Below the pieces are notes generated by a model. The model had not been told where the DNA came from and searched no databases. It was given only the letters and a program-made list of their open reading frames with translations. A stretch of 51,310 nucleotides of DNA, taken from Candidatus Nanoarchaeia archaeon. Its GTDB lineage: Archaea; Nanobdellota; Nanobdellia; SCGC-AAA011-G17; DATDVL01. The stretch is taken from positions 1 to 51,310 of the forward strand of contig DATDVL010000017.1 in assembly GCA_035290025.1 (NCBI GenBank), given 5' to 3'. Below, one piece after another: positions 3,463 to 41,792 of this stretch. The first letter of the stretch is position 1. Each line of letters begins with the position of its first letter. A program made the position numbers and the translations under genes.

Positions 3463-3483
3463 GTCTTTTTCTTGGTTTTCTTT

Positions 3484-3599
3484 GGAACGGTCATAGCTGC
3501 CTGGTCCTACTGGATCTCGTTTCGATCTCCAAAGTCAAGCAGGCATACGTTCTTCGTTGTACTGTCCTCTGTGACGGGAAGCGGAGATAGCTGTTCCAC
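3484..3599 (+). rRNA. 5S: 5S ribosomal RNA (not linked to 16S/23S in this window)
   Basis: The termini pair (GGAACGG with CTGTTCC). Conserved blocks are present: GGTCATAGC, CTCGTTTCGATCTCCAAAGTCAAGC (compare CUCAUUUCGAACCCGGAAGUUAAGC), GTTGTACTG and GGGAAGC. It is followed by T9. Confidence 0.85.
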
Positions 3600-32333: not shown

Positions 32334-32834
32334 ATGGCAAAGAAGTTTATTGTTGAGGGTTTTAAAGTAAAAGCTGATGCTGCTACGTTAGACTTAAAAG
32401 AGCTGTATAAACGTATGTGGCGTTGGTTTGAGGCTATGGGCTACTCGGCGAAAGAGACAGAGTATCGCGAGATGTCTGATGCTTCTGGTTCGCAGTCGTT
32501 GGAGATTCGTTGGGAATGTTCACGTGATGAGGATTCGTATGCGAAGCATGTTATCCAAATTGATTTTTTCTTGTTGGGTATAAAGGAAGTTGAAGTGGAG
32601 AAGAATGGTGTGCAGACCAAGTTGATGAAGGGTACGTTTGAGATTCAGATTTTTGCATTTATGGATCGTGCAAGAGGGTATGATAGTTCTTTTTTGGGGT
32701 ATGTTAAGAAGTGGTTTGAGGATTATCTTTTGAAGGATCGTTTGGATCGTCAGGAGAAGAATTTTCGTGGTGAGGTTGAGGCCTTAGTTGCGGAGATTAA
32801 GGTGTTTTTTGGGTTGTATGGTGCGTTGGTATAA
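32334..32834 (+). CDS. hypothetical protein (166 aa)
   Basis: ATG with gaagaggtg SD and a TATA-like box at 32303-32313. The 3' end overlaps convergent lspA by 51 nt. Confidence 0.5.
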   Translation: MAKKFIVEGFKVKADAATLDLKELYKRMWRWFEAMGYSAKETEYREMSDASGSQSLEIRWECSRDEDSYAKHVIQIDFFLLGIKEVEVEKNGVQTKLMKGTFEIQIFAFMDRARGYDSSFLGYVKKWFEDYLLKDRLDRQEKNFRGEVEALVAEIKVFFGLYGALV

Positions 32835-33209
32835 TTCTTTTCCCAGGCTGTAGAGTAATAATATGCCGCCGATGGTTGTTGCAGTGTCTGCGATGTTGAA
32901 ATAGGGGAAGGTAATGTAGGGTAGTTTGATAAAATCTATGACATGGCCATAAAGTATTCTGTCGGTTAAGTTGCCAAGTAGTCCTCCCATAATGAACGGG
33001 TAGGCGAAGTGGGGTTCTTGTTCTTGGTAGTAAATAAGTGCAAGCATGATAATAATGGCAAGTATGCTAAGCAAGGTGTTGTTGCCGTACAATATGCCGA
33101 AGCTTGCTCCGGTGTTGGTTACATAGGCTAGAGTGTTTTGTGCGATGTATTTAGTAATCTGATCAATGAAGAGTATAATAATACTGATAATCCAGAATTT
33201 GTTTACCAT
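32784..33209 (-). CDS. lspA: lipoprotein signal peptidase (signal peptidase II)
   Basis: LspA blocks are present: NTGASFGIL, GGLLGNLTDRILYGHVIDFI and FPYFNIADTATTIGGILLL (both catalytic Asp contexts). 141 aa with 4 TM segments. Confidence 0.75.
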   Translation of the reverse strand: MVNKFWIISIIILFIDQITKYIAQNTLAYVTNTGASFGILYGNNTLLSILAIIIMLALIYYQEQEPHFAYPFIMGGLLGNLTDRILYGHVIDFIKLPYITFPYFNIADTATTIGGILLLYSLGKELYQRTIQPKKHLNLRN

Positions 33210-33427
33210 TGTTTTCGTTGTTGGTCGTAGGTAGTTTTTTCTAGGCTTGCTAGTCGTTGGTGTAAATTTTCTAGTCGTGCGTTGATCAGGTCGAGTTTGG
33301 TATTAAGGAGGCTGAATTCTTTTGCTAAGTCTAGGATGGGTGGTGTCAGTAAAGGGTGGAGTTGTTGCTCGGGTGTTTTCAGTTCTGGTACTAATCGTTC
33401 CTCTTTTTTCTTGCCGAATATGCCCAT
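33203..33427 (-). CDS. small coiled-coil protein (74 aa), upstream of lspA
   Basis: ATG at 33427. Heptad-like LNTKLDLINARLENLHQRLASLEK. Overlaps the lspA start by 7 nt. Confidence 0.4.
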   Translation of the reverse strand: MGIFGKKKEERLVPELKTPEQQLHPLLTPPILDLAKEFSLLNTKLDLINARLENLHQRLASLEKTTYDQQRKQW

Positions 33428-33451: not shown

Positions 33452-33462
33452 CTATTTAAATC
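33452..33462. promoter_or_regulatory. TATA box (ctatttaaatc) between divergent 33427 and 33489 genes
   Basis: Centred about 30 nt from the ATG at 33427 (minus) and about 32 nt from the ATG at 33489 (plus). Confidence 0.45.
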
Positions 33463-33488
33463 TTGTCTATGAAGAGGTGCTCGGACAG

Positions 33489-34958
33489 ATGAGTTTTTTG
33501 CAAAAGTTGTTTCCTGTTGAAGAGAAGAAGGATGAGAAGCCTGTTGTTAAGCCTGATGTTCCAGGTAAACCTGCGGGTGATACGTTTCGTTTGATGATTG
33601 ATGCTCCCACATCGGGTGTTGAGCGTTATTATTTTTGGATGATTCGTTTGTTGGAGAAGTCTGGTCCGTATGGTATGAATTTTTATCCGCCGTTGGGTGA
33701 GATTATTAAGGTTCGTGATGTGTATTCTTCTGCAGAGACATCTTCGTATTGGGGTAATGTTGAGCAGAAGAAGGCTGCGCAGCAGGATCGTGTTTCCACG
33801 TACATGGCAAATATTGGTAAGTTCATTAAGGATTTATTTCAGATTGTTCGTGAGTTGCGTATTTTGGATGAGCGCTTGGGGTATTATGATGGTATCCTTA
33901 AGGATGATAAGAATGCGAAGGGTGCTGATGTTGCGTTGAAGGGTATCTGGGTCGATTTGGTTGAGGGTGGTGGTAAGAATCCTGGTTCGGTTTATGGTTT
34001 GGCTTCTCAGGTGGGTTTTGTTACGCTTCCTGATTTGTTTTTTGATACGTTTGTTCGTAAGCGTGAGGATATGGCTGCTGCTGTTGCGGGGTATGAAGGC
34101 ATGGGTATTAATCGTAAGGTTCGTGAGGTGTTGATGCGTAAGTTGGAGCAGTATTTGTTGTGGCGTGATGCTACGGATAAGGAGCTTCGTCAGCGTCGTC
34201 GTTTCGTCTTGTCGTATTTGGCGCAAGAATTTAATGTTATTAAGATGTATGCTGCTTGGTTGAAGCCGTATTTGCAGAATGTTCGTAAGTTGCAGCAGTC
34301 TGCTGATTTGAATAAGTATGATATTGTTACTGCTTTTGATACGTCCAAGATCGAGTTGGAATTGTTGGCGGTTCGTAAGAAGGATCAAAAGTTGGAGAAG
34401 GATTTTGTTGAGAATATTCCTGTGTTGCGTGTTCGTTTGTCGCATGTTGCTATTCCGCAGATGGCGTTTCAGCAGGAGTTTCAGCGTGGTGCTATTCATA
34501 CGGGTCATACGAAGATTATTATTGATGCTTTTGTTGCTTCTAAGGATTCCTTAAAAAAATATCAGCAGGTTCAGGATGGTGATGTTTTTGATGTGTTGAC
34601 AGCTATTGATGAGACAGTGGGTGCGTTGAAGGATGATTTGGAGAAGTATTTGACGGAGGCTGCTACGTTGTATAATTTGAAGGAGTTGAAGACGTTGTTT
34701 CCGGAGAAGCCGAAGGAGGCTAAGAAGCGTGGTGAGTCTGTTTTTGATCCGTTTAAGGCTATTTTTTCTGGTTTTGCTGAGATTGGTAAGGCTCCTTTTT
34801 CTTGGTCGTCTGATGATAGGAAGGAAGAGAAGGAGAAGCCAAAGTTAACGAATGTGCAGGAGCTGGAAGAGGCTGCTTTGGCGAAGGATGCTGCTAAGAC
34901 TGATGCTAAGGTGTTGTATACGGTGTTTAAGAAGGCGCATCGGATGATGACGCCATGA
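33489..34958 (+). CDS. large conserved-looking hypothetical protein (489 aa)
   Basis: ATG at 33489 (MSFLQKLFPVEEKK). The portion of the ORF-track ORF upstream of this overlaps the divergent gene and promoter. No NTP-binding or catalytic motif recognised. Mostly helical, with a K/E-rich C-terminal tail. Confidence 0.6.
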   Translation: MSFLQKLFPVEEKKDEKPVVKPDVPGKPAGDTFRLMIDAPTSGVERYYFWMIRLLEKSGPYGMNFYPPLGEIIKVRDVYSSAETSSYWGNVEQKKAAQQDRVSTYMANIGKFIKDLFQIVRELRILDERLGYYDGILKDDKNAKGADVALKGIWVDLVEGGGKNPGSVYGLASQVGFVTLPDLFFDTFVRKREDMAAAVAGYEGMGINRKVREVLMRKLEQYLLWRDATDKELRQRRRFVLSYLAQEFNVIKMYAAWLKPYLQNVRKLQQSADLNKYDIVTAFDTSKIELELLAVRKKDQKLEKDFVENIPVLRVRLSHVAIPQMAFQQEFQRGAIHTGHTKIIIDAFVASKDSLKKYQQVQDGDVFDVLTAIDETVGALKDDLEKYLTEAATLYNLKELKTLFPEKPKEAKKRGESVFDPFKAIFSGFAEIGKAPFSWSSDDRKEEKEKPKLTNVQELEEAALAKDAAKTDAKVLYTVFKKAHRMMTP

Positions 34959-34967
34959 GGGTGATGT

Positions 34968-36941
34968 ATGGCTGGTTTTGAGTCTGATTATGTTAATGCG
35001 AATGATCGTGGTATTTTTGATGAGTCTACGAAGGATGGTTTGCGCCGTTTGGGTGTTTCTCATGGTGTTGGTGATGTTTCTGAGGGTTTGAAGGCGAACA
35101 TTTTTGCTGGTGCTTCGTTGGTGGAGTTGGGTTTTACAGGTACAGGTAAGTCTCAAGGTAAACAAGCCCCTTCTCCAGAAACGTTTGGTCGTGATGAGCG
35201 TGAGGAGATGCGTTTGCTTGCGAAAATTAATGAGGTAGAAATTTCTGTGCATGCTGCTCCTAACATTGGTCCGTTGTCAGGTTTTGATGGTCGTGGTCGT
35301 TTTGATCCTGCGTTGGCGCAGTCGCGCGTGAATGAGGTCAAGAAGGCTATTGATTTTGCTGCTGATGTTGCTAGTGGTGGTGCTGTTGTTGTCCATACGG
35401 ATGAGTTTCCTCGTCCCGTGTTTGATGTTGATCGTCCTGGCGAGTATAAGCATATTGAGGCTGAGGCTGATGGTAAGAAGAATAAGTTTCAGCAGTTTGC
35501 GGAAGAGGGTGATAAGTCGGTTATTTATTTGGTTGATGAGAGGTCTGGCCAGATTATTGATCAGGTGAAGCGTGATGAGAAAATTTTTACTCCTGAGTAT
35601 GATCGTTATGTAGAGATGAAGGATAATAAGGGTAAAGTGTTAATAAATGATTTGACGGGTGAGAAGCGTTATCTTCCTTTGTATAAGGTTGATGAGCGTG
35701 GTGAGATTCAGTTTAAGACGCAGACGTTTGCTGGTTATTTAGAGAGTGAACAAGAGAAGGCTAGGGCTGAAGGTAGAGAACTTTCTGAAGAAAGTGTTGC
35801 TAAACAGTTTTTCCGTGAGCAGAAGGCTAAGGAATTGGAGCGTGCTCGTGGTCAGGCTGATGAGTATGAAATCCAGTTTCAGCAGGCTAAGGAAGTTCGT
35901 GAGAAGATTGAGAAGTCTTTGGGTTTTTATCAGAAGTTAAAGGCGGAGACGTACAAGAATTTTGATAAGGTTACTGCTGATGAGAAGTGGGAGGAGATGA
36001 AGCGTGAGGTTAAGACGGGTAATTTTATTCCTCCTGATACGGTTGATCCTATTGATTTTTTGGAGAAGGAGAAGAATCGTGTTGAGAAGCAGATGTCGTA
36101 TGGTGCTGAGGTTGCTAATGCTGCTCGTCAGCAGTTGAAGGAGGCTGAGGATTTGATTAAGAATCGTGTTGTTTCTTTGGGTGAGTTTGGTGTGAAGCAG
36201 GCTGCGAAGTCGTATGCTGATGCTGCGTTGTATGCGTATCAGGTTGAGCAGAAGCGTAAAGATGAGGGTCGTCCTTTGGATCGTAATTTGTTTGTTGCTC
36301 CTGAGGGTTGGCAGACAGAGTCGTATGGTTCTCATCCTAAGGAGATGCGTGAGTTGATTCAAGAGTCTCGTCAGCAGATGGCGGAGAAGTTGCGTGAGAA
36401 GGAAGGTAAAGATGATTATGGTAATTGGAAGCTTTCGGAAAAGAAGGCTTTGGATATTGCTCAGGATCATATTCAAGGCACATTAGATGTTGGTCATATT
36501 AATAATTGGCGTAAGCACTTTCAGGGTTCTGATGATCAGTTTAACAAGTGGTTAGTAGATAATGTTAAGGAGATGGTGAAGGATAAGGTTATTGGTAATA
36601 TTCATATTTCTGATAATTTTGGTTATCATGATGAGCATTTGCGTGTGGGTGAGGGTAATGCTCCTATTAAGGAGTTGTTGCAGCAGTTGGAGAAGGGTGG
36701 TTATAAGGGTCATTATGTTGCTGAGCCTGGCGGTCAGAAGCAGGGGCAGTTTCATACTGCTTGGACGTCTGCTTTGGCATTGTCAGGTTCTCCTATCTAT
36801 CGTACAGATCGTTCGTCTCGTTCCTGGACGGATATTCAGGGTTCGTACTTTGGTGGTACGCCAGGTCCTAATTATCTGGTGGGTGAGGGTGTTGTTCCTT
36901 CCAAAGAATTTACGTTGTGGTCGCAGGTTCCTTTAGAATAA
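34968..36941 (+). CDS. xylose-isomerase-like TIM-barrel (AP_endonuc_2 superfamily) protein interrupted by a ~285-aa coiled-coil insertion
   Basis: N-terminal barrel blocks are EISVHAAPN and GGAVVVHTDEF. C-terminal blocks are FVAPEG, GTLDVGHINNW, IGNIHISDNFGYHDEHLRVGEGNAPIKELL and GHYVAEPG. Residues ~150-435 are E/K/Q-rich and helical. SD gaggtga lies before the ATG, 9 nt after the upstream stop. Confidence 0.6.
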   Translation: MAGFESDYVNANDRGIFDESTKDGLRRLGVSHGVGDVSEGLKANIFAGASLVELGFTGTGKSQGKQAPSPETFGRDEREEMRLLAKINEVEISVHAAPNIGPLSGFDGRGRFDPALAQSRVNEVKKAIDFAADVASGGAVVVHTDEFPRPVFDVDRPGEYKHIEAEADGKKNKFQQFAEEGDKSVIYLVDERSGQIIDQVKRDEKIFTPEYDRYVEMKDNKGKVLINDLTGEKRYLPLYKVDERGEIQFKTQTFAGYLESEQEKARAEGRELSEESVAKQFFREQKAKELERARGQADEYEIQFQQAKEVREKIEKSLGFYQKLKAETYKNFDKVTADEKWEEMKREVKTGNFIPPDTVDPIDFLEKEKNRVEKQMSYGAEVANAARQQLKEAEDLIKNRVVSLGEFGVKQAAKSYADAALYAYQVEQKRKDEGRPLDRNLFVAPEGWQTESYGSHPKEMRELIQESRQQMAEKLREKEGKDDYGNWKLSEKKALDIAQDHIQGTLDVGHINNWRKHFQGSDDQFNKWLVDNVKEMVKDKVIGNIHISDNFGYHDEHLRVGEGNAPIKELLQQLEKGGYKGHYVAEPGGQKQGQFHTAWTSALALSGSPIYRTDRSSRSWTDIQGSYFGGTPGPNYLVGEGVVPSKEFTLWSQVPLE

Positions 36942-37022
36942 ATTTGTTGGTAAGTGTGCATTATAGTTTGTAGAATAACCTTTATATAGCTTGTTTTCTT
37001 AGTATTTTTGGGTTAAAAGAGG

Positions 37023-37847
37023 ATGAAGTTTGATATTCCTAAGGGTGATAAGAAGAATAGTTCTCGTTATTTAGGTGAGGATTTGGATGTTGTTCGTAAG
37101 TTTGCTCGTATTCTCTATAAAGAGTTTGGTTCTTTTTTGCGTTGTGTTGTCTTGTTTGGTTCTTCGGTGAAAAATCCTGGTCAGAAGCATCGTGATTTGG
37201 ATGTGTTAGTGGTGGTTGATGATGTTCGTTATCCTTTTGCTCAGGAGGTTGTTGAGGCGTATCGTCTGATTCTTGCTCGTGCTGTTAAGGATGTTGATCC
37301 GCAGCGTTTACATATACAGAGTATGAAGTTGTCTGCGTGGTGGGAGTATGTTCGTGCGGGTGATCCTGTTGCGATTAATGTTTTGCGGTATGGTGTTGCT
37401 GTTATTGATACAGGCTTTTTTGATCCGTTGCAGGCCTTGTTGGAGCAGGGTCGTATTCGTCCTACAGGTGAGGCTATTTGGACGTATTTCACGTTGGCTC
37501 CTGCTTCGTTGGCGCGGTCTCGTGAGAACTTGTTGACGGCTGTTGTTGATTTGTATTGGGCTGCTGTTGATGCGGGTCATGCTGCGTTGATGGTTATTGG
37601 TGAAATCCCTCCTAATCCTTCGGGTGTTGCTGAGTTGGTTGATGCTAAGTTGGCGGGTCATGGTCATATTAAGCCGAAGCATGCTCGTATGATGGCTGAG
37701 TTGTTTCGGGTGTTTAAGGGTATTGTGCATCGTGAAATTAAGGAAGTTTCTGGTAAGTATTATGATGAGTTACGTGCAAAGTCTGAGGAGTTTGTTCGTG
37801 TGATGAAAGAGTTTATTGAGAAGCAGAAGCGTGATGGTAAGTTTTAG
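37023..37847 (+). CDS. nucleotidyltransferase-domain protein with C-terminal helical domain
   Basis: VVLFGSSVKNPGQKHRDLDVLVVVDD is a Pol-beta-type NTase GS...DxD motif. The C-terminal ~150 aa are homologous to the corresponding part of 45130-46971. Confidence 0.65.
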   Translation: MKFDIPKGDKKNSSRYLGEDLDVVRKFARILYKEFGSFLRCVVLFGSSVKNPGQKHRDLDVLVVVDDVRYPFAQEVVEAYRLILARAVKDVDPQRLHIQSMKLSAWWEYVRAGDPVAINVLRYGVAVIDTGFFDPLQALLEQGRIRPTGEAIWTYFTLAPASLARSRENLLTAVVDLYWAAVDAGHAALMVIGEIPPNPSGVAELVDAKLAGHGHIKPKHARMMAELFRVFKGIVHREIKEVSGKYYDELRAKSEEFVRVMKEFIEKQKRDGKF

Positions 37848-39122: not shown

Positions 39123-39836
39123 ATGGTAAACTGCATAAATTGTGGAAATGATCCGTGTGATCAGAGTAATTATAACTGTCCAGGTTATGTAAACCCTTTT
39201 AGTACTTTAAATTTTAGTTGTCCGACTTGCAATAACGATCCGTGTGACAATAGTCAACCCGGTTGTCCTGGTTATGTAAATCCAAGTCCAGCACCTTCAA
39301 GTGGTGTAAGTACACAATCAAATACTGGTTCGCCCAGTACAGGAGGAAATAACATGTCTATGGCAAAGATTATTGGTGGAGCTGTTGCTGCCATTGGGTT
39401 AGCTAGTTTAGGAGCTTATGCTGGCTGTTCAAGTGGTAAAGCAAGTGGCTTAGAAGAAGGTAAACAAGCAGGTATTGTAGAAGGTACAAAGGTGGGAGAT
39501 ACAACAGGGTATGCACGTGGTCTTGCTGAAATGCAGGCAAAGTATAGTGCTACAGGTCGTTTCGATGTCATGACACAGGATAGATTATTTGATCCTATGA
39601 CTGGACGAGAATTGCCTATTACTCAGTTGGATACGACTGTGGGTAAGTTGAGATTGCACCCTGTACCTGTTACTGCACCAGGTGGACGTATGTCTGTTAA
39701 AGGTGTAGATGTTGGCGCAGTTGTTTGGGAAGCTGAAATTATTGATAGCTTGAAAGTACCGCAAGGTCCTGATGCTACCACTGTGCAGTATGGTAATGAC
39801 AATCGTCGTGTACGATTAGTCTATAAGGATCGATAA
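39123..39836 (+). CDS. single-pass membrane protein with duplicated N-terminal Cys-rich module
   Basis: SD ggagg. The motif C-x2-C-x-NDPCD-x5-C-PGYVNP occurs twice. It is followed by an S/P/G linker, a TM segment (IIGGAVAAIGLASLGAYAG) and a ~130-aa C-terminal domain. Base composition is not G+T skewed. Confidence 0.55.
   Translation: MVNCINCGNDPCDQSNYNCPGYVNPFSTLNFSCPTCNNDPCDNSQPGCPGYVNPSPAPSSGVSTQSNTGSPSTGGNNMSMAKIIGGAVAAIGLASLGAYAGCSSGKASGLEEGKQAGIVEGTKVGDTTGYARGLAEMQAKYSATGRFDVMTQDRLFDPMTGRELPITQLDTTVGKLRLHPVPVTAPGGRMSVKGVDVGAVVWEAEIIDSLKVPQGPDATTVQYGNDNRRVRLVYKDR
39132..39284 (+). repeat. tandem duplication of a 22-codon Cys-rich module (39132-39197 and 39219-39284)
   Basis: CINCGNDPCDQSNYNCPGYVNP versus CPTCNNDPCDNSQPGCPGYVNP. 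The nucleotide similarity is visible (gatccgtgtga../..ggttatgtaaa). Confidence 0.7.
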
Positions 39837-40155: not shown

Positions 40156-40171
40156 TTTTTTTCTTTTTTTT
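40156..40171 (+). terminator. oligo-T tract after the 39123-40151 pair
   Basis: tttttttcttttttttt lies immediately after the stop codon. Archaeal terminators are oligo-T tracts. Confidence 0.35.
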
Positions 40172-41792
40172 ATAATTCTTTTATGTCTTTTCTTGCCACA
40201 CTTAAGAGGAGTCTTTTTTCGCTTCGTGCAACGTTTTTTCTTGTTTCTTCGAGGTGTTCTGGTGGTACAATAATGGTGTCAAATCCTATTTTTATCAAGA
40301 AGTCTAATAATTCATCGTCGAAGTTTCCTGCGATGCTTATTTCTATGTTGCGTATTTTGCATTCTTTGACGAGGTGGTGTAAGAGTTTGAGGTAGCCTTT
40401 GTGTTTGTAGTCGGGTTGTTCTGTTCCTTGGCTGTTGCGTGCGAGTTGTTGGTGGTTGACGATGATGAAGTCTATGCCTTCTCGTTCGATGTCGTCTAAG
40501 AGGTAGATCGTGCTGGGTGCTTCTACGGTGATGCCGAGTTCTATTTCTTCTAGGGGTTCTAGTCCTTCTTTTTTGAGTGCTTTTTTTGTTTGTTTGATGA
40601 TTTCTGTGCTGGGGGGGTTGGTGATGCTGATGCCGAGGTTGTTGTAGCCTTGGTCATGGAGTTGTCGTATGTGGGGTATGTCTGCTAGGTTAGTAAGTGC
40701 GTACCAGAGGTATTTTTGTTGGTAGTCTTGGATAATATTAGCTAGGTTATCAATGGAAAGTGTAGTATAGGCTCCGTCGCAGGTTTGGTATGCTGCAGGT
40801 GTTTGCAGGTAAGCGCTTATTTCGGTGATGGTCGTGGTGTCTTCTTTGGTTGTCTTTTGGTGTTCGTGGTGGTTGTTTGCTTGGGTGAGTGCTTGTTCTA
40901 TGAATGGTGGTTGCAGGTGGAATGGTTTGATGGTAAGGATAGTTAATTGGCTATTAGTAATGCCGAGTTCTATAGTTACAGGTTCTGGATTATAGTGTTT
41001 GATAGTTTTGTAGAGCTGTAGTATAATCTGTAATTCTTGGTCAGTGAGTTTTTGGTATGTTCCTTGGTAATAGATTGGTTTTTTGTTGAGTGTGCCGGTT
41101 ATGTGGTCTCTGCTGAGGAGGAAGTCTTGTCGGTTGATGGTTTTGGTGATGCCTTCAGGTGTTAGGGTATAAATGTCGGGTTGTATGAGCTTGGTTGTTA
41201 TTGCTTCGGGGTTGCCGAGTGCTGCTTCTATGATAGGTTGTTCTTCGTCGTGGATGATGCAGCTTTTTTCTAGGGTGACCATTTTTTGTATTAATAATTC
41301 TGGTGCTGTGTTGGGGAGTGTTGATAGCCATGCTTTTTTTATGGCTTCTAGGAGGTGTTCTTTTCCTTTGATGTGGTATTGTGTTGTTCCTTCTCCATTG
41401 ATAGTGCTTGTTCTGATGATGACGCGTGGTAGTTCTCTGCCTGTTTTTATGATATTGAGTGCTTCTTTGCTTAAGTGGTTGTAGATGTCTTGGTCGATGA
41501 ATAGTTGGTCGTATGCTTCGTAGAGTGCTTGTTGTAATGCTTCAGGGTAGGTTGCTTGTTGGTAGTGTTGGTGGTAGTTTTGGATGGTTTTGCTTATTGC
41601 TTCTTCATCGTCGGGGTTTATCGTTGCTGAGTCAGGAAGGTCTATAGTATTGTGCTGCAAGAATGCTTGGTAGGCTTCGGGTGTGATGACAAATCCTTGG
41701 GGTACGGGTAGTTTTTGTTCTGCAAGTTTGTTAAGAAGTTGTAGCTTTTCTGTGGTGAAATTGTTGGGTTGGTGGAGCCAGGCGATGTGCAT
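40170..41792 (-). CDS. PEP synthase/PPDK-like protein with ATP-grasp (PPDK_N) and PEP-utilizer TIM-barrel parts but no recognisable phospho-histidine swivel domain
   Basis: N-terminal blocks are LPVPQGFVITPEAYQAFL, VIIRTSTINGEG...LLEAIKKAWLS and LLIQKMV...EAALGNPEAI. The C-terminal block is ITVEAPS...DFIIVNHQQLARNSQG. 540 aa, and I find no GG-x-TSHAAI-type motif. Confidence 0.65.
   Translation of the reverse strand: MHIAWLHQPNNFTTEKLQLLNKLAEQKLPVPQGFVITPEAYQAFLQHNTIDLPDSATINPDDEEAISKTIQNYHQHYQQATYPEALQQALYEAYDQLFIDQDIYNHLSKEALNIIKTGRELPRVIIRTSTINGEGTTQYHIKGKEHLLEAIKKAWLSTLPNTAPELLIQKMVTLEKSCIIHDEEQPIIEAALGNPEAITTKLIQPDIYTLTPEGITKTINRQDFLLSRDHITGTLNKKPIYYQGTYQKLTDQELQIILQLYKTIKHYNPEPVTIELGITNSQLTILTIKPFHLQPPFIEQALTQANNHHEHQKTTKEDTTTITEISAYLQTPAAYQTCDGAYTTLSIDNLANIIQDYQQKYLWYALTNLADIPHIRQLHDQGYNNLGISITNPPSTEIIKQTKKALKKEGLEPLEEIELGITVEAPSTIYLLDDIEREGIDFIIVNHQQLARNSQGTEQPDYKHKGYLKLLHHLVKECKIRNIEISIAGNFDDELLDFLIKIGFDTIIVPPEHLEETRKNVARSEKRLLLSVARKDIKEL

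Follow-up and report, generated by a model that had tools for sequence, protein, structure and literature searches.

In a 51,310-nt stretch of archaeal DNA (Candidatus Nanoarchaeia archaeon, GenBank assembly GCA_035290025.1, contig DATDVL010000017.1, positions 1–51,310; hereafter the window), we characterized a 657-aa protein encoded on the + strand just downstream of a gene for a 489-aa protein, here called up489. Profile searches and a predicted structure indicate that the 657-aa protein is a xylose-isomerase-like (PF01261) triosephosphate isomerase (TIM) barrel of the MJ1311-like branch, cut in two by a very large insertion and retaining the residues expected to bind several metal ions. We favor the reading, to which we assign a rough probability of 0.45, that it is an active multinuclear-metal enzyme, most likely a phosphoesterase, that holds the inserted module over its active site and works with the products of neighboring genes. 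Both the architecture of the barrel and its partner, a fold orphan, are unusual, and the family occurs widely across its lineage. The split barrel itself is a variant within an established enzyme superfamily and does not represent a new kind of system.

A PF01261 barrel in two parts

Both open reading frames (ORFs) of the pair were present exactly where the first-pass annotation, made from the sequence alone, had placed them. Each has hundreds of full-length homologues, hence we regard both as real genes and not chance ORFs. Together with the next gene downstream, for a nucleotidyltransferase (NTase)-like protein, they are:

33489–34958, + strand: up489 gene, 489 aa (ORF; start ATG at 33489)
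34968–36941, + strand: gene for the 657-aa split TIM-barrel protein, PF01261 (ORF, Pfam, model, homologues)
37023–37847, + strand: gene for the 274-aa NTase-like protein (Pfam NTP_transf_2, PDB profile matches, conservation)

The earlier proposal was that 34968–36941 encodes one PF01261 barrel interrupted by a very large insertion, and four lines of evidence bear it out: Pfam, a predicted model, Foldseek, and excision of the insertion. All barrel motifs quoted for the protein were found in the translation. Pfam matched PF01261 in two stretches (E 2.1e-15; 57.6 bits vs a cut-off of 31.1). When residues 153–400 were excised, the joined flanks still matched (54–65 bits; E 1.9e-14 for the window protein), and in two homologues freed of the insertion the match became a single stretch over profile positions 6–229 of 249 (E 5e-17 and 8e-18). 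The joined-flank comparison had been suggested in the first-pass annotation, and the barrel passed it. The AlphaFold model, built with 52 homologues on a sequence (P0001) with a single residue difference from the window protein (I226M), had a predicted local distance difference test score (pLDDT) of 84 and a predicted template-modeling score (pTM) of 0.81, and comprised eight strand-helix units. The elements placed in this model, and the segments they define, are:

beta1, residues 28–31
beta2, residues 51–55
beta3, residues 91–95
beta4, residues 138–144
alpha4, residues 404–432
beta5, residues 441–447
beta6, residues 504–507
beta7, residues 542–547
beta8, residues 582–585
35025–35414, + strand: N-terminal half of the barrel, residues 20–149, beta1–beta4; invariant E53, R78, H95, E123, H143, E146, R149
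36177–36788, + strand: C-terminal half of the barrel, residues 404–607, alpha4–beta8; invariant E446, D507, H510, H546, D549, H557, E586
36789–36938, + strand: C-terminal tail, residues 608–657; pLDDT < 50, disordered in the monomer model

Foldseek comparison with the PDB aligned compact barrels over their whole length, spanning the insertion, at a probability of 1.00 for many structures of the family. The best match was MJ1311 of M. jannaschii (3WQO; template-modeling (TM) score 0.70, normalized to the target), followed by ketose 3-epimerases for D-allulose and D-tagatose and by UlaE. A profile search of PDB sequences also returned 3WQO first (E 6.6e-12), with YcjR second.

A HMMER scan of 1.84 billion cluster representatives gave 1453 matches at E ≤ 0.001, of which 604 had E ≤ 1e-30. 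Homologues carrying the insertion, a search for which had been proposed, are common: the best 150 of the 604 strong matches are 443–773 aa long and mostly align over the full length of the profile, which makes the insertion a trait of the family. The protein is thus far from a compact, single-domain barrel of ~290 aa, having 657 residues, a family-wide insertion of ~254 aa and a tail of ~50 aa.

The insertion is somewhat shorter than at first thought and differently built. That it is very large holds; the original estimate of ~285 aa (nt ~35418–36273) is replaced in the model by ~254 aa (nt 35415–36176), with its end at residue ~403 and not ~435 because helix 404–432 is the barrel's own alpha4. 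It had also been described as E/K/Q/R-rich and strongly helical, a description that fits residues 254–399 but not the first third, which is beta-rich with six strands. The module divides as follows:

35415–36176, + strand: whole inserted module, residues ~150–403, between beta4 and alpha4 (AlphaFold model)
35520–35726, + strand: beta-rich subdomain, residues 185–253, six strands (model; motif YLVDxxTGxI, G194 invariant)
35727–36164, + strand: helical hairpin, helices 254–267, 274–331, 334–347 and 361–399 (model; poorly conserved sequence)

E, K, Q and R make up 35% of the beta part and 46% of the helical part, and helix 361–399 has a strong 3.5-residue hydrophobic periodicity. With the exception of YLVDxxTGxI, conservation in the module is low (mean top-residue fraction 0.2–0.35 vs 0.5–0.8 in the barrel), and the distance from H143 to E446, which flank it, ranged from 211 to 334 residues among 52 homologues. 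The segment had no Pfam family, and its profile gave no PDB sequence match below E 0.46. A profile of the insertion only (23 sequences), run against an index of 5.8 billion proteins, returned one partial family member and did not recover the known family; this search was probably swamped by K/E-rich words and is uninformative on whether the module occurs elsewhere.

In TIM barrels generally, the beta-to-alpha loops lie on the catalytic face. By this architecture a module in the beta4-alpha4 loop would sit over the active site, and from that position it probably handles substrate or mediates oligomerization. An insertion of ~250 residues on the catalytic face is unusual for the PF01261 superfamily. 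The first-pass annotation had pictured a long stalk or scaffold emerging from the enzyme. The module is instead a beta subdomain plus a helical hairpin on the catalytic face, and it need not be a passive scaffold; the term enzyme-scaffold system remains a guess.

The C-terminal tail of the barrel protein is conserved in length (46–59 aa) and in its aromatic residues, and ends in WSxVPLE. We regard it as a candidate docking element that might bind a partner. A membrane location was rejected on hydropathy: no transmembrane segment was found in up489, the barrel protein or the NTase-like protein, the maximum 19-residue Kyte-Doolittle mean being 1.42.

The putative metal site and the proposed reaction

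Catalytic competence had been left to the conservation of the metal ligands, and in 52 homologues with 30–59% identity to the query these were invariant or nearly so. H95, H143, E146, R149, E446, D507, H510, H546, D549, H557 and E586 did not vary, while D555 was Asp in 47 sequences and His in five. The invariant set includes the core Glu-Asp-His-Glu metal site on beta5–beta8 (E446, D507, H546, E586). It also includes, or nearly so, the five positions beyond this core that multinuclear-metal members need, H95, H143, H510, D555 and H557. Because the ligands are conserved, the barrel looks catalytically competent.

The pattern resembles that of endonuclease IV, a member of the same superfamily. 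Local hhalign comparison with E. coli Nfo (the sequence used differs from 1QTW by one residue) paired D507, H510, H546, D555, H557 and E586 with D179, H182, H216, D229, H231 and E261; the support is weak (E 0.13–0.15), and the alignment is confident for the C-terminal half only. In the N-terminal half, which was not confidently aligned, H95, H143 and E446 were placed at the ends of beta3, beta4 and beta5, like H69, H109 and E145 of Nfo, by strand order, local motif and eye. By these comparisons, all nine positions of the trinuclear-zinc ligands of endonuclease IV appear to be kept, the N-terminal three being assigned by strand order and by eye.

MJ1311, the best match in both the profile and the fold searches, is a functionally uncharacterized protein named 'D-tagatose 3-epimerase-like protein' (3WQO). 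Its motifs FDIGH and HxHxxDNxGYxDEHLxxGEGN are nearly identical to those of the window barrel, and the beta3 and beta4 His residues are present in the aligned segments. MJ1311 is, however, a compact protein of 293 aa; the window barrel adds ~254 residues in the beta4-alpha4 loop and a tail of ~50 residues, and stands in a conserved neighborhood with two or three other uncharacterized genes. In MJ1311 the same loop reportedly reaches over the active site of the neighboring subunit, and the protein is reported to conserve the nine residues and to lack a DNA groove (structure report of Uechi et al., Acta Cryst F 2014). The two proteins would share an endonuclease IV metal signature on an epimerase-like scaffold, such that solving the function of one may explain the other. 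Literature searches on this family in DPANN archaea and on MJ1311/3WQO turned up no description of the split-barrel architecture or of the gene cluster.

In the preferred mechanism, the barrel would bind two or three metal ions and hydrolyze a phosphoester rather than epimerize a free sugar. The inserted module would close over or position a large substrate, or pair two subunits, or both. The enzyme would cooperate with the putatively co-transcribed up489 protein and, in most relatives, also with a K/E-rich disordered protein of ~180 aa and a kanamycin-nucleotidyltransferase-like enzyme, with the conserved tail of the barrel protein as a candidate docking element.

Several observations weigh against this scheme. 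The closest structures are sugar epimerases, not hydrolases: none of the top 50 Foldseek matches in the PDB was an endonuclease IV structure, and UVDE appeared at ranks 44–45 only. A scan of the barrel against NCBIfam models at E ≤ 0.1 likewise gave no endonuclease IV match and returned just a weak match to fructoselysine 3-epimerase plus an unrelated one. The ligand correspondence to Nfo carries the weak E values and the visual assignments given above. Every segment of the barrel protein is mildly acidic, and this gives no hint of nucleic-acid binding. To our knowledge, there is no enzyme assay or metal analysis on record for the family or for MJ1311. We infer physical interaction with the neighboring products from gene order, and distant members of the barrel family stand without these neighbors.

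A rival assignment would make the barrel the endonuclease IV of its lineage, an apurinic/apyrimidinic (AP) endonuclease and 3'-end-cleaning enzyme of base excision repair that is brought to DNA, or to factors of replication and repair, by its inserted arm and conserved tail. We consider this unlikely, despite the nine conserved zinc-ligand positions and a near-universal presence in a phylum-level lineage, as might be expected of a housekeeping repair enzyme. The nearest solved relative, MJ1311, is tabulated as the predicted endonuclease IV homologue of M. jannaschii in one table of PMC2770678. An HhH-GPD glycosylase gene (locus L002) and two RNase HII genes (locus L087) lie within a few kb of the barrel, but each of these occurrences is from a single locus and not from a systematic count. 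Nfo differs from the window barrel in having no insertion, no family-level sequence match and no place among the top structural neighbors, where epimerases dominate, and the acidity of the protein throughout counts against this assignment as well, as does the reported lack of a DNA-binding groove in MJ1311. If the barrel were nonetheless the AP endonuclease of the lineage, a gap in the DNA repair of these organisms would be filled; if not, it probably marks a new pathway.

Public databases list these sequences under automatic names such as 'TIM barrel protein' and 'sugar phosphate isomerase/epimerase', and an enzyme of the latter kind, with a single Mn/Co-type site (E446, D507, H546, E586) and an insertion that serves oligomerization only, is an alternative that we hold to be improbable. 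The structural ranking speaks for it: after MJ1311, the best structures are D-allulose, D-tagatose and L-ketose 3-epimerases and UlaE (for example 8XIX, 3CQJ, 7X7W, 2OU4), which share the barrel geometry (TM 0.63–0.69, normalized to the target) and the Glu-Asp-His-Glu core, and YcjR is the second PDB sequence match. These enzymes are, however, single-metal proteins of ~290 aa without the additional conserved His/Asp set and without the insertion. In the window family H95, H143, H510, D555 and H557, needed only by multinuclear-metal members, are retained, and the Arg that follows the beta7 His of ketose 3-epimerases is Gly by visual comparison. The names in the databases were transferred automatically from the Pfam family. 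Moreover, Woesearchaeota-type genomes are known to be metabolically minimal, and a near-universal ketose epimerase would be odd in them.

Gene neighborhood and partner proteins

A scan covering each GTDB species by one genome recovered relatives of the barrel in at least 495 genomes. The 80 genomes kept are labeled Woesearchaeota, Pacearchaeota, Nanoarchaeota/Nanoarchaeia, 'archaeon' or, in a few cases, 'uncultured Methanosarcinales'; one barrel homologue is labeled Hadarchaeum. We clustered all ORFs from 84 loci plus the window, 85 in total, with the following counts:

barrel: 85 of 85 loci
274-aa NTase-like protein: 72 of 85 loci
489-aa protein (up489): 65 of 85 loci
signal peptidase II: 38 of 85 loci
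166-aa protein (window 32334–32834): 27 of 85 loci

The two genes first noted do co-occur: among 80 species-level loci, up489 lies upstream of the barrel, on the same strand and within 1.1 kb, in 47 of the 64 that are informative. In 14 of these 47 the two genes are immediate neighbors, as they are in the window; in the other 33 a gap of ~0.5 kb separates them. The NTase-like gene shows a more consistent linkage to the barrel than up489 does; 75 of its 76 copies are downstream of the barrel on the same strand, at a median distance of 126 nt, and 65 of 73 informative loci have it downstream, inside the 8-kb flank. The gap between up489 and the barrel encodes a K/E-rich, apparently largely disordered protein of 140–210 aa (~40 loci) with loosely conserved motifs, among them LxxLxPEERL at the N-terminus, PLEExV in the center and YKKK at the C-terminus. 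The window has no copy of this gene in its 51 kb; copies directly upstream of the barrel in other loci include:

L001: 7411–8004
L089: 7780–8331
L090: 7452–8000

The usual order is up489, often the K/E-rich gene for a protein of ~180 aa, the barrel, and the NTase-like gene for a 274-aa protein. A two-gene unit, as first proposed, is therefore too small: the conserved unit has three to four genes. The linkage persists at ~31% barrel identity where the outer flanks differ (L001), and was recovered in two of three cases when the search was started from up489 homologues. Genes for aminoacyl-tRNA synthetases, FttA, the CCA-adding enzyme and 5S rRNA lie nearby. The neighborhood is chromosomal and housekeeping in character, without a mobile-element or defense signature, and a defense or phage origin was rejected after PADLOC and PHROGs scans returned only a generic NTase match. 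Genomes of DPANN archaea are very small, so a long gene that hundreds of their species retain along with conserved neighbors likely has a central role.

Candidate signals around these genes were read from the sequence. For up489, we preferred the ATG at 33489 over an alternative TTG at 33282, since the longer frame would overlap an opposite-strand ORF (33203–33427) and up489 homologues are ~450–530 aa long. The stop codon of up489 (TGA, 34956–34958) is separated by a 9-nt spacer from the ATG of the barrel at 34968. The putative elements are:

33453–33461, + strand: TATTTAAAT, putative promoter element of the up489 gene, ~30 nt upstream
33474–33479, + strand: GAGGTG, putative ribosome-binding site, 9 nt before ATG 33489
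34957–34965, + strand: GAGGGTGAT, Shine-Dalgarno-like, containing GAGG/GGTGAT; overlaps the up489 stop, 2–7 nt before the barrel ATG
36988–37000, + strand: ACCTTTATATAG, putative TATA-like element within the 81-nt spacer after the barrel gene

The first two are likely expression signals of the up489 gene. Co-transcription and translational coupling of up489 and the barrel are plausible, because GAGGGTGAT overlaps the up489 stop and the spacer to the barrel ATG is 9 nt. The NTase-like gene may own a separate promoter, since it is set apart by the 81-nt spacer with its TATA-like ACCTTTATATAG.

The 489-aa protein had been called a protein without a recognizable family, and this was confirmed in Pfam, NCBIfam, the PDB and BFVD. 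Over 888 homologues of this protein are indexed; all of them come from DPANN archaea, and none carries a Pfam domain. Pfam scans of 60 members gave no consistent family, and the up489 profile matched no PDB sequence. One homologue (P0142, 535 aa) carries a HYPK-type UBA domain (Pfam E 3.6e-8) that is absent from other members. The AlphaFold model (pLDDT 77, pTM 0.58) has a five-strand sheet, formed from N- and C-terminal strands and interrupted by long helices (91–137 and 209–269), then a disordered stretch (400–454) and a C-terminal helix (455–483). Comparison of this fold gave nothing significant in the PDB (best E 0.036) or in BFVD (best E 1.2e-3, TM 0.14). Matches to STAT, BabA, Cyt-toxin and levivirus maturation-protein structures were discarded (TM ≤ 0.3). 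The segment GGGKNPGS, already judged not to be a Walker A motif, turned out to be part of the most conserved block of the family, VEGGxKNPxSVxGLASQVGF. By contrast, the suggested resemblance between the K/E-rich tail of up489 and the barrel insertion does not reflect homology, which was rejected at an hhalign probability of 0.13%. The gene set is a concrete target for the biochemistry of archaeal genomic 'dark matter'.

The 274-aa protein scored marginally against Pfam NTP_transf_2 (22.1 bits vs a cut-off of 21). G46, D58 and D60 of its hG[GS]...DxD motif are invariant, and S47 is conserved in at least 90% of sequences. Its profile matched an NTase-domain protein and kanamycin NTase in the PDB (E 6e-4 to 0.016). 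Like the kanamycin nucleotidyltransferase/minimal nucleotidyltransferase (MNT) family, it has an N-terminal Pol-beta-type NTase domain with G-S and D-x-D motifs and a two-domain size (~250–270 aa in that family); it differs in its marginal Pfam score and in a conserved C-terminal domain without a PDB sequence match. These C-terminal 180 residues are strongly conserved (WEYVRxGDPxAxNxLR, GRIRP, DLYWxxxDxxHAALM).

A bolder version of the scheme, which we regard as quite doubtful, joins the barrel, up489, the K/E-rich protein and the kanamycin-NTase-like enzyme into one previously undescribed, lineage-wide machine. A trinuclear, endonuclease IV-like metal center, positioned by the coiled-coil arm, would remove a phosphoester-linked group, for example a blocked nucleic-acid 3' end or a nucleotidyl adduct, and the NTase would then add to that site or regenerate it. 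If true, Nanoarchaeota-type DPANN archaea would possess a new system for end healing or (de)nucleotidylation.

That the barrel is mainly structural, recruited with up489 into a cytoskeleton-like or cage-like assembly and with catalysis secondary or lost, is very unlikely: long helical hairpins and conserved disordered tails occur in both proteins, a K/E-rich disordered protein is often encoded between them, and up489 has no enzyme-like signature, but neither the metal ligands nor several other active-site residues vary in homologues down to ~30% identity, which indicates selection on catalysis.

Other features of the window

Upstream of the cluster, the 166-aa ORF of unknown family (32334–32834, + strand), kept in 27 loci, occurs in three tandem copies in locus L002. 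In the window, this ORF and the convergent gene for signal peptidase II (32784–33209, − strand), a frequent upstream neighbor of the cluster (38 loci), overlap by 51 nt at their 3' ends. Downstream, an ORF at 39123–39836 (+ strand) begins with two copies of a Cys-rich motif (CxNDPCDxSxxxCPGYVNP); a Ser/Gly-rich linker and then a hydrophobic segment come next, and the ORF has no significant Pfam family. The gene at 40170–41792 (− strand) encodes a pyruvate phosphate dikinase (PPDK)/phosphoenolpyruvate (PEP)-synthase-like protein of 540 aa that contains PPDK_N and PEP-utilizers_C and lacks the central PEP-utilizers domain; the syntenic gene in L002 encodes 778 aa with all three domains, and the median stop-to-stop ORF length among the clustered homologues of this gene is 752 aa. 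A 5S rRNA gene lies at 3483–3599 (+ strand, 66 bits); the search for tRNA genes found none in the 51-kb window.

The two strands of the window differ extremely in composition: the GC skew is +0.26 and the AT skew −0.32 overall, and the sign stays the same throughout. Among the 84 related loci, the median |GC skew| is only 0.054. In + strand genes, the third codon position is T in 53%, G in 33%, A in 9.5% and C in 3.8% of codons; in − strand genes, read along the coding strand of each, it is A in 47%, C in 37%, T in 10% and G in 6%. On the + strand, G or T thus occupies about 85% of third codon positions, regardless of gene direction. This pattern resembles an extreme form of leading-strand or mitochondrial heavy-strand deamination bias, and random damage seems unlikely because the encoded proteins are intact and conserved.

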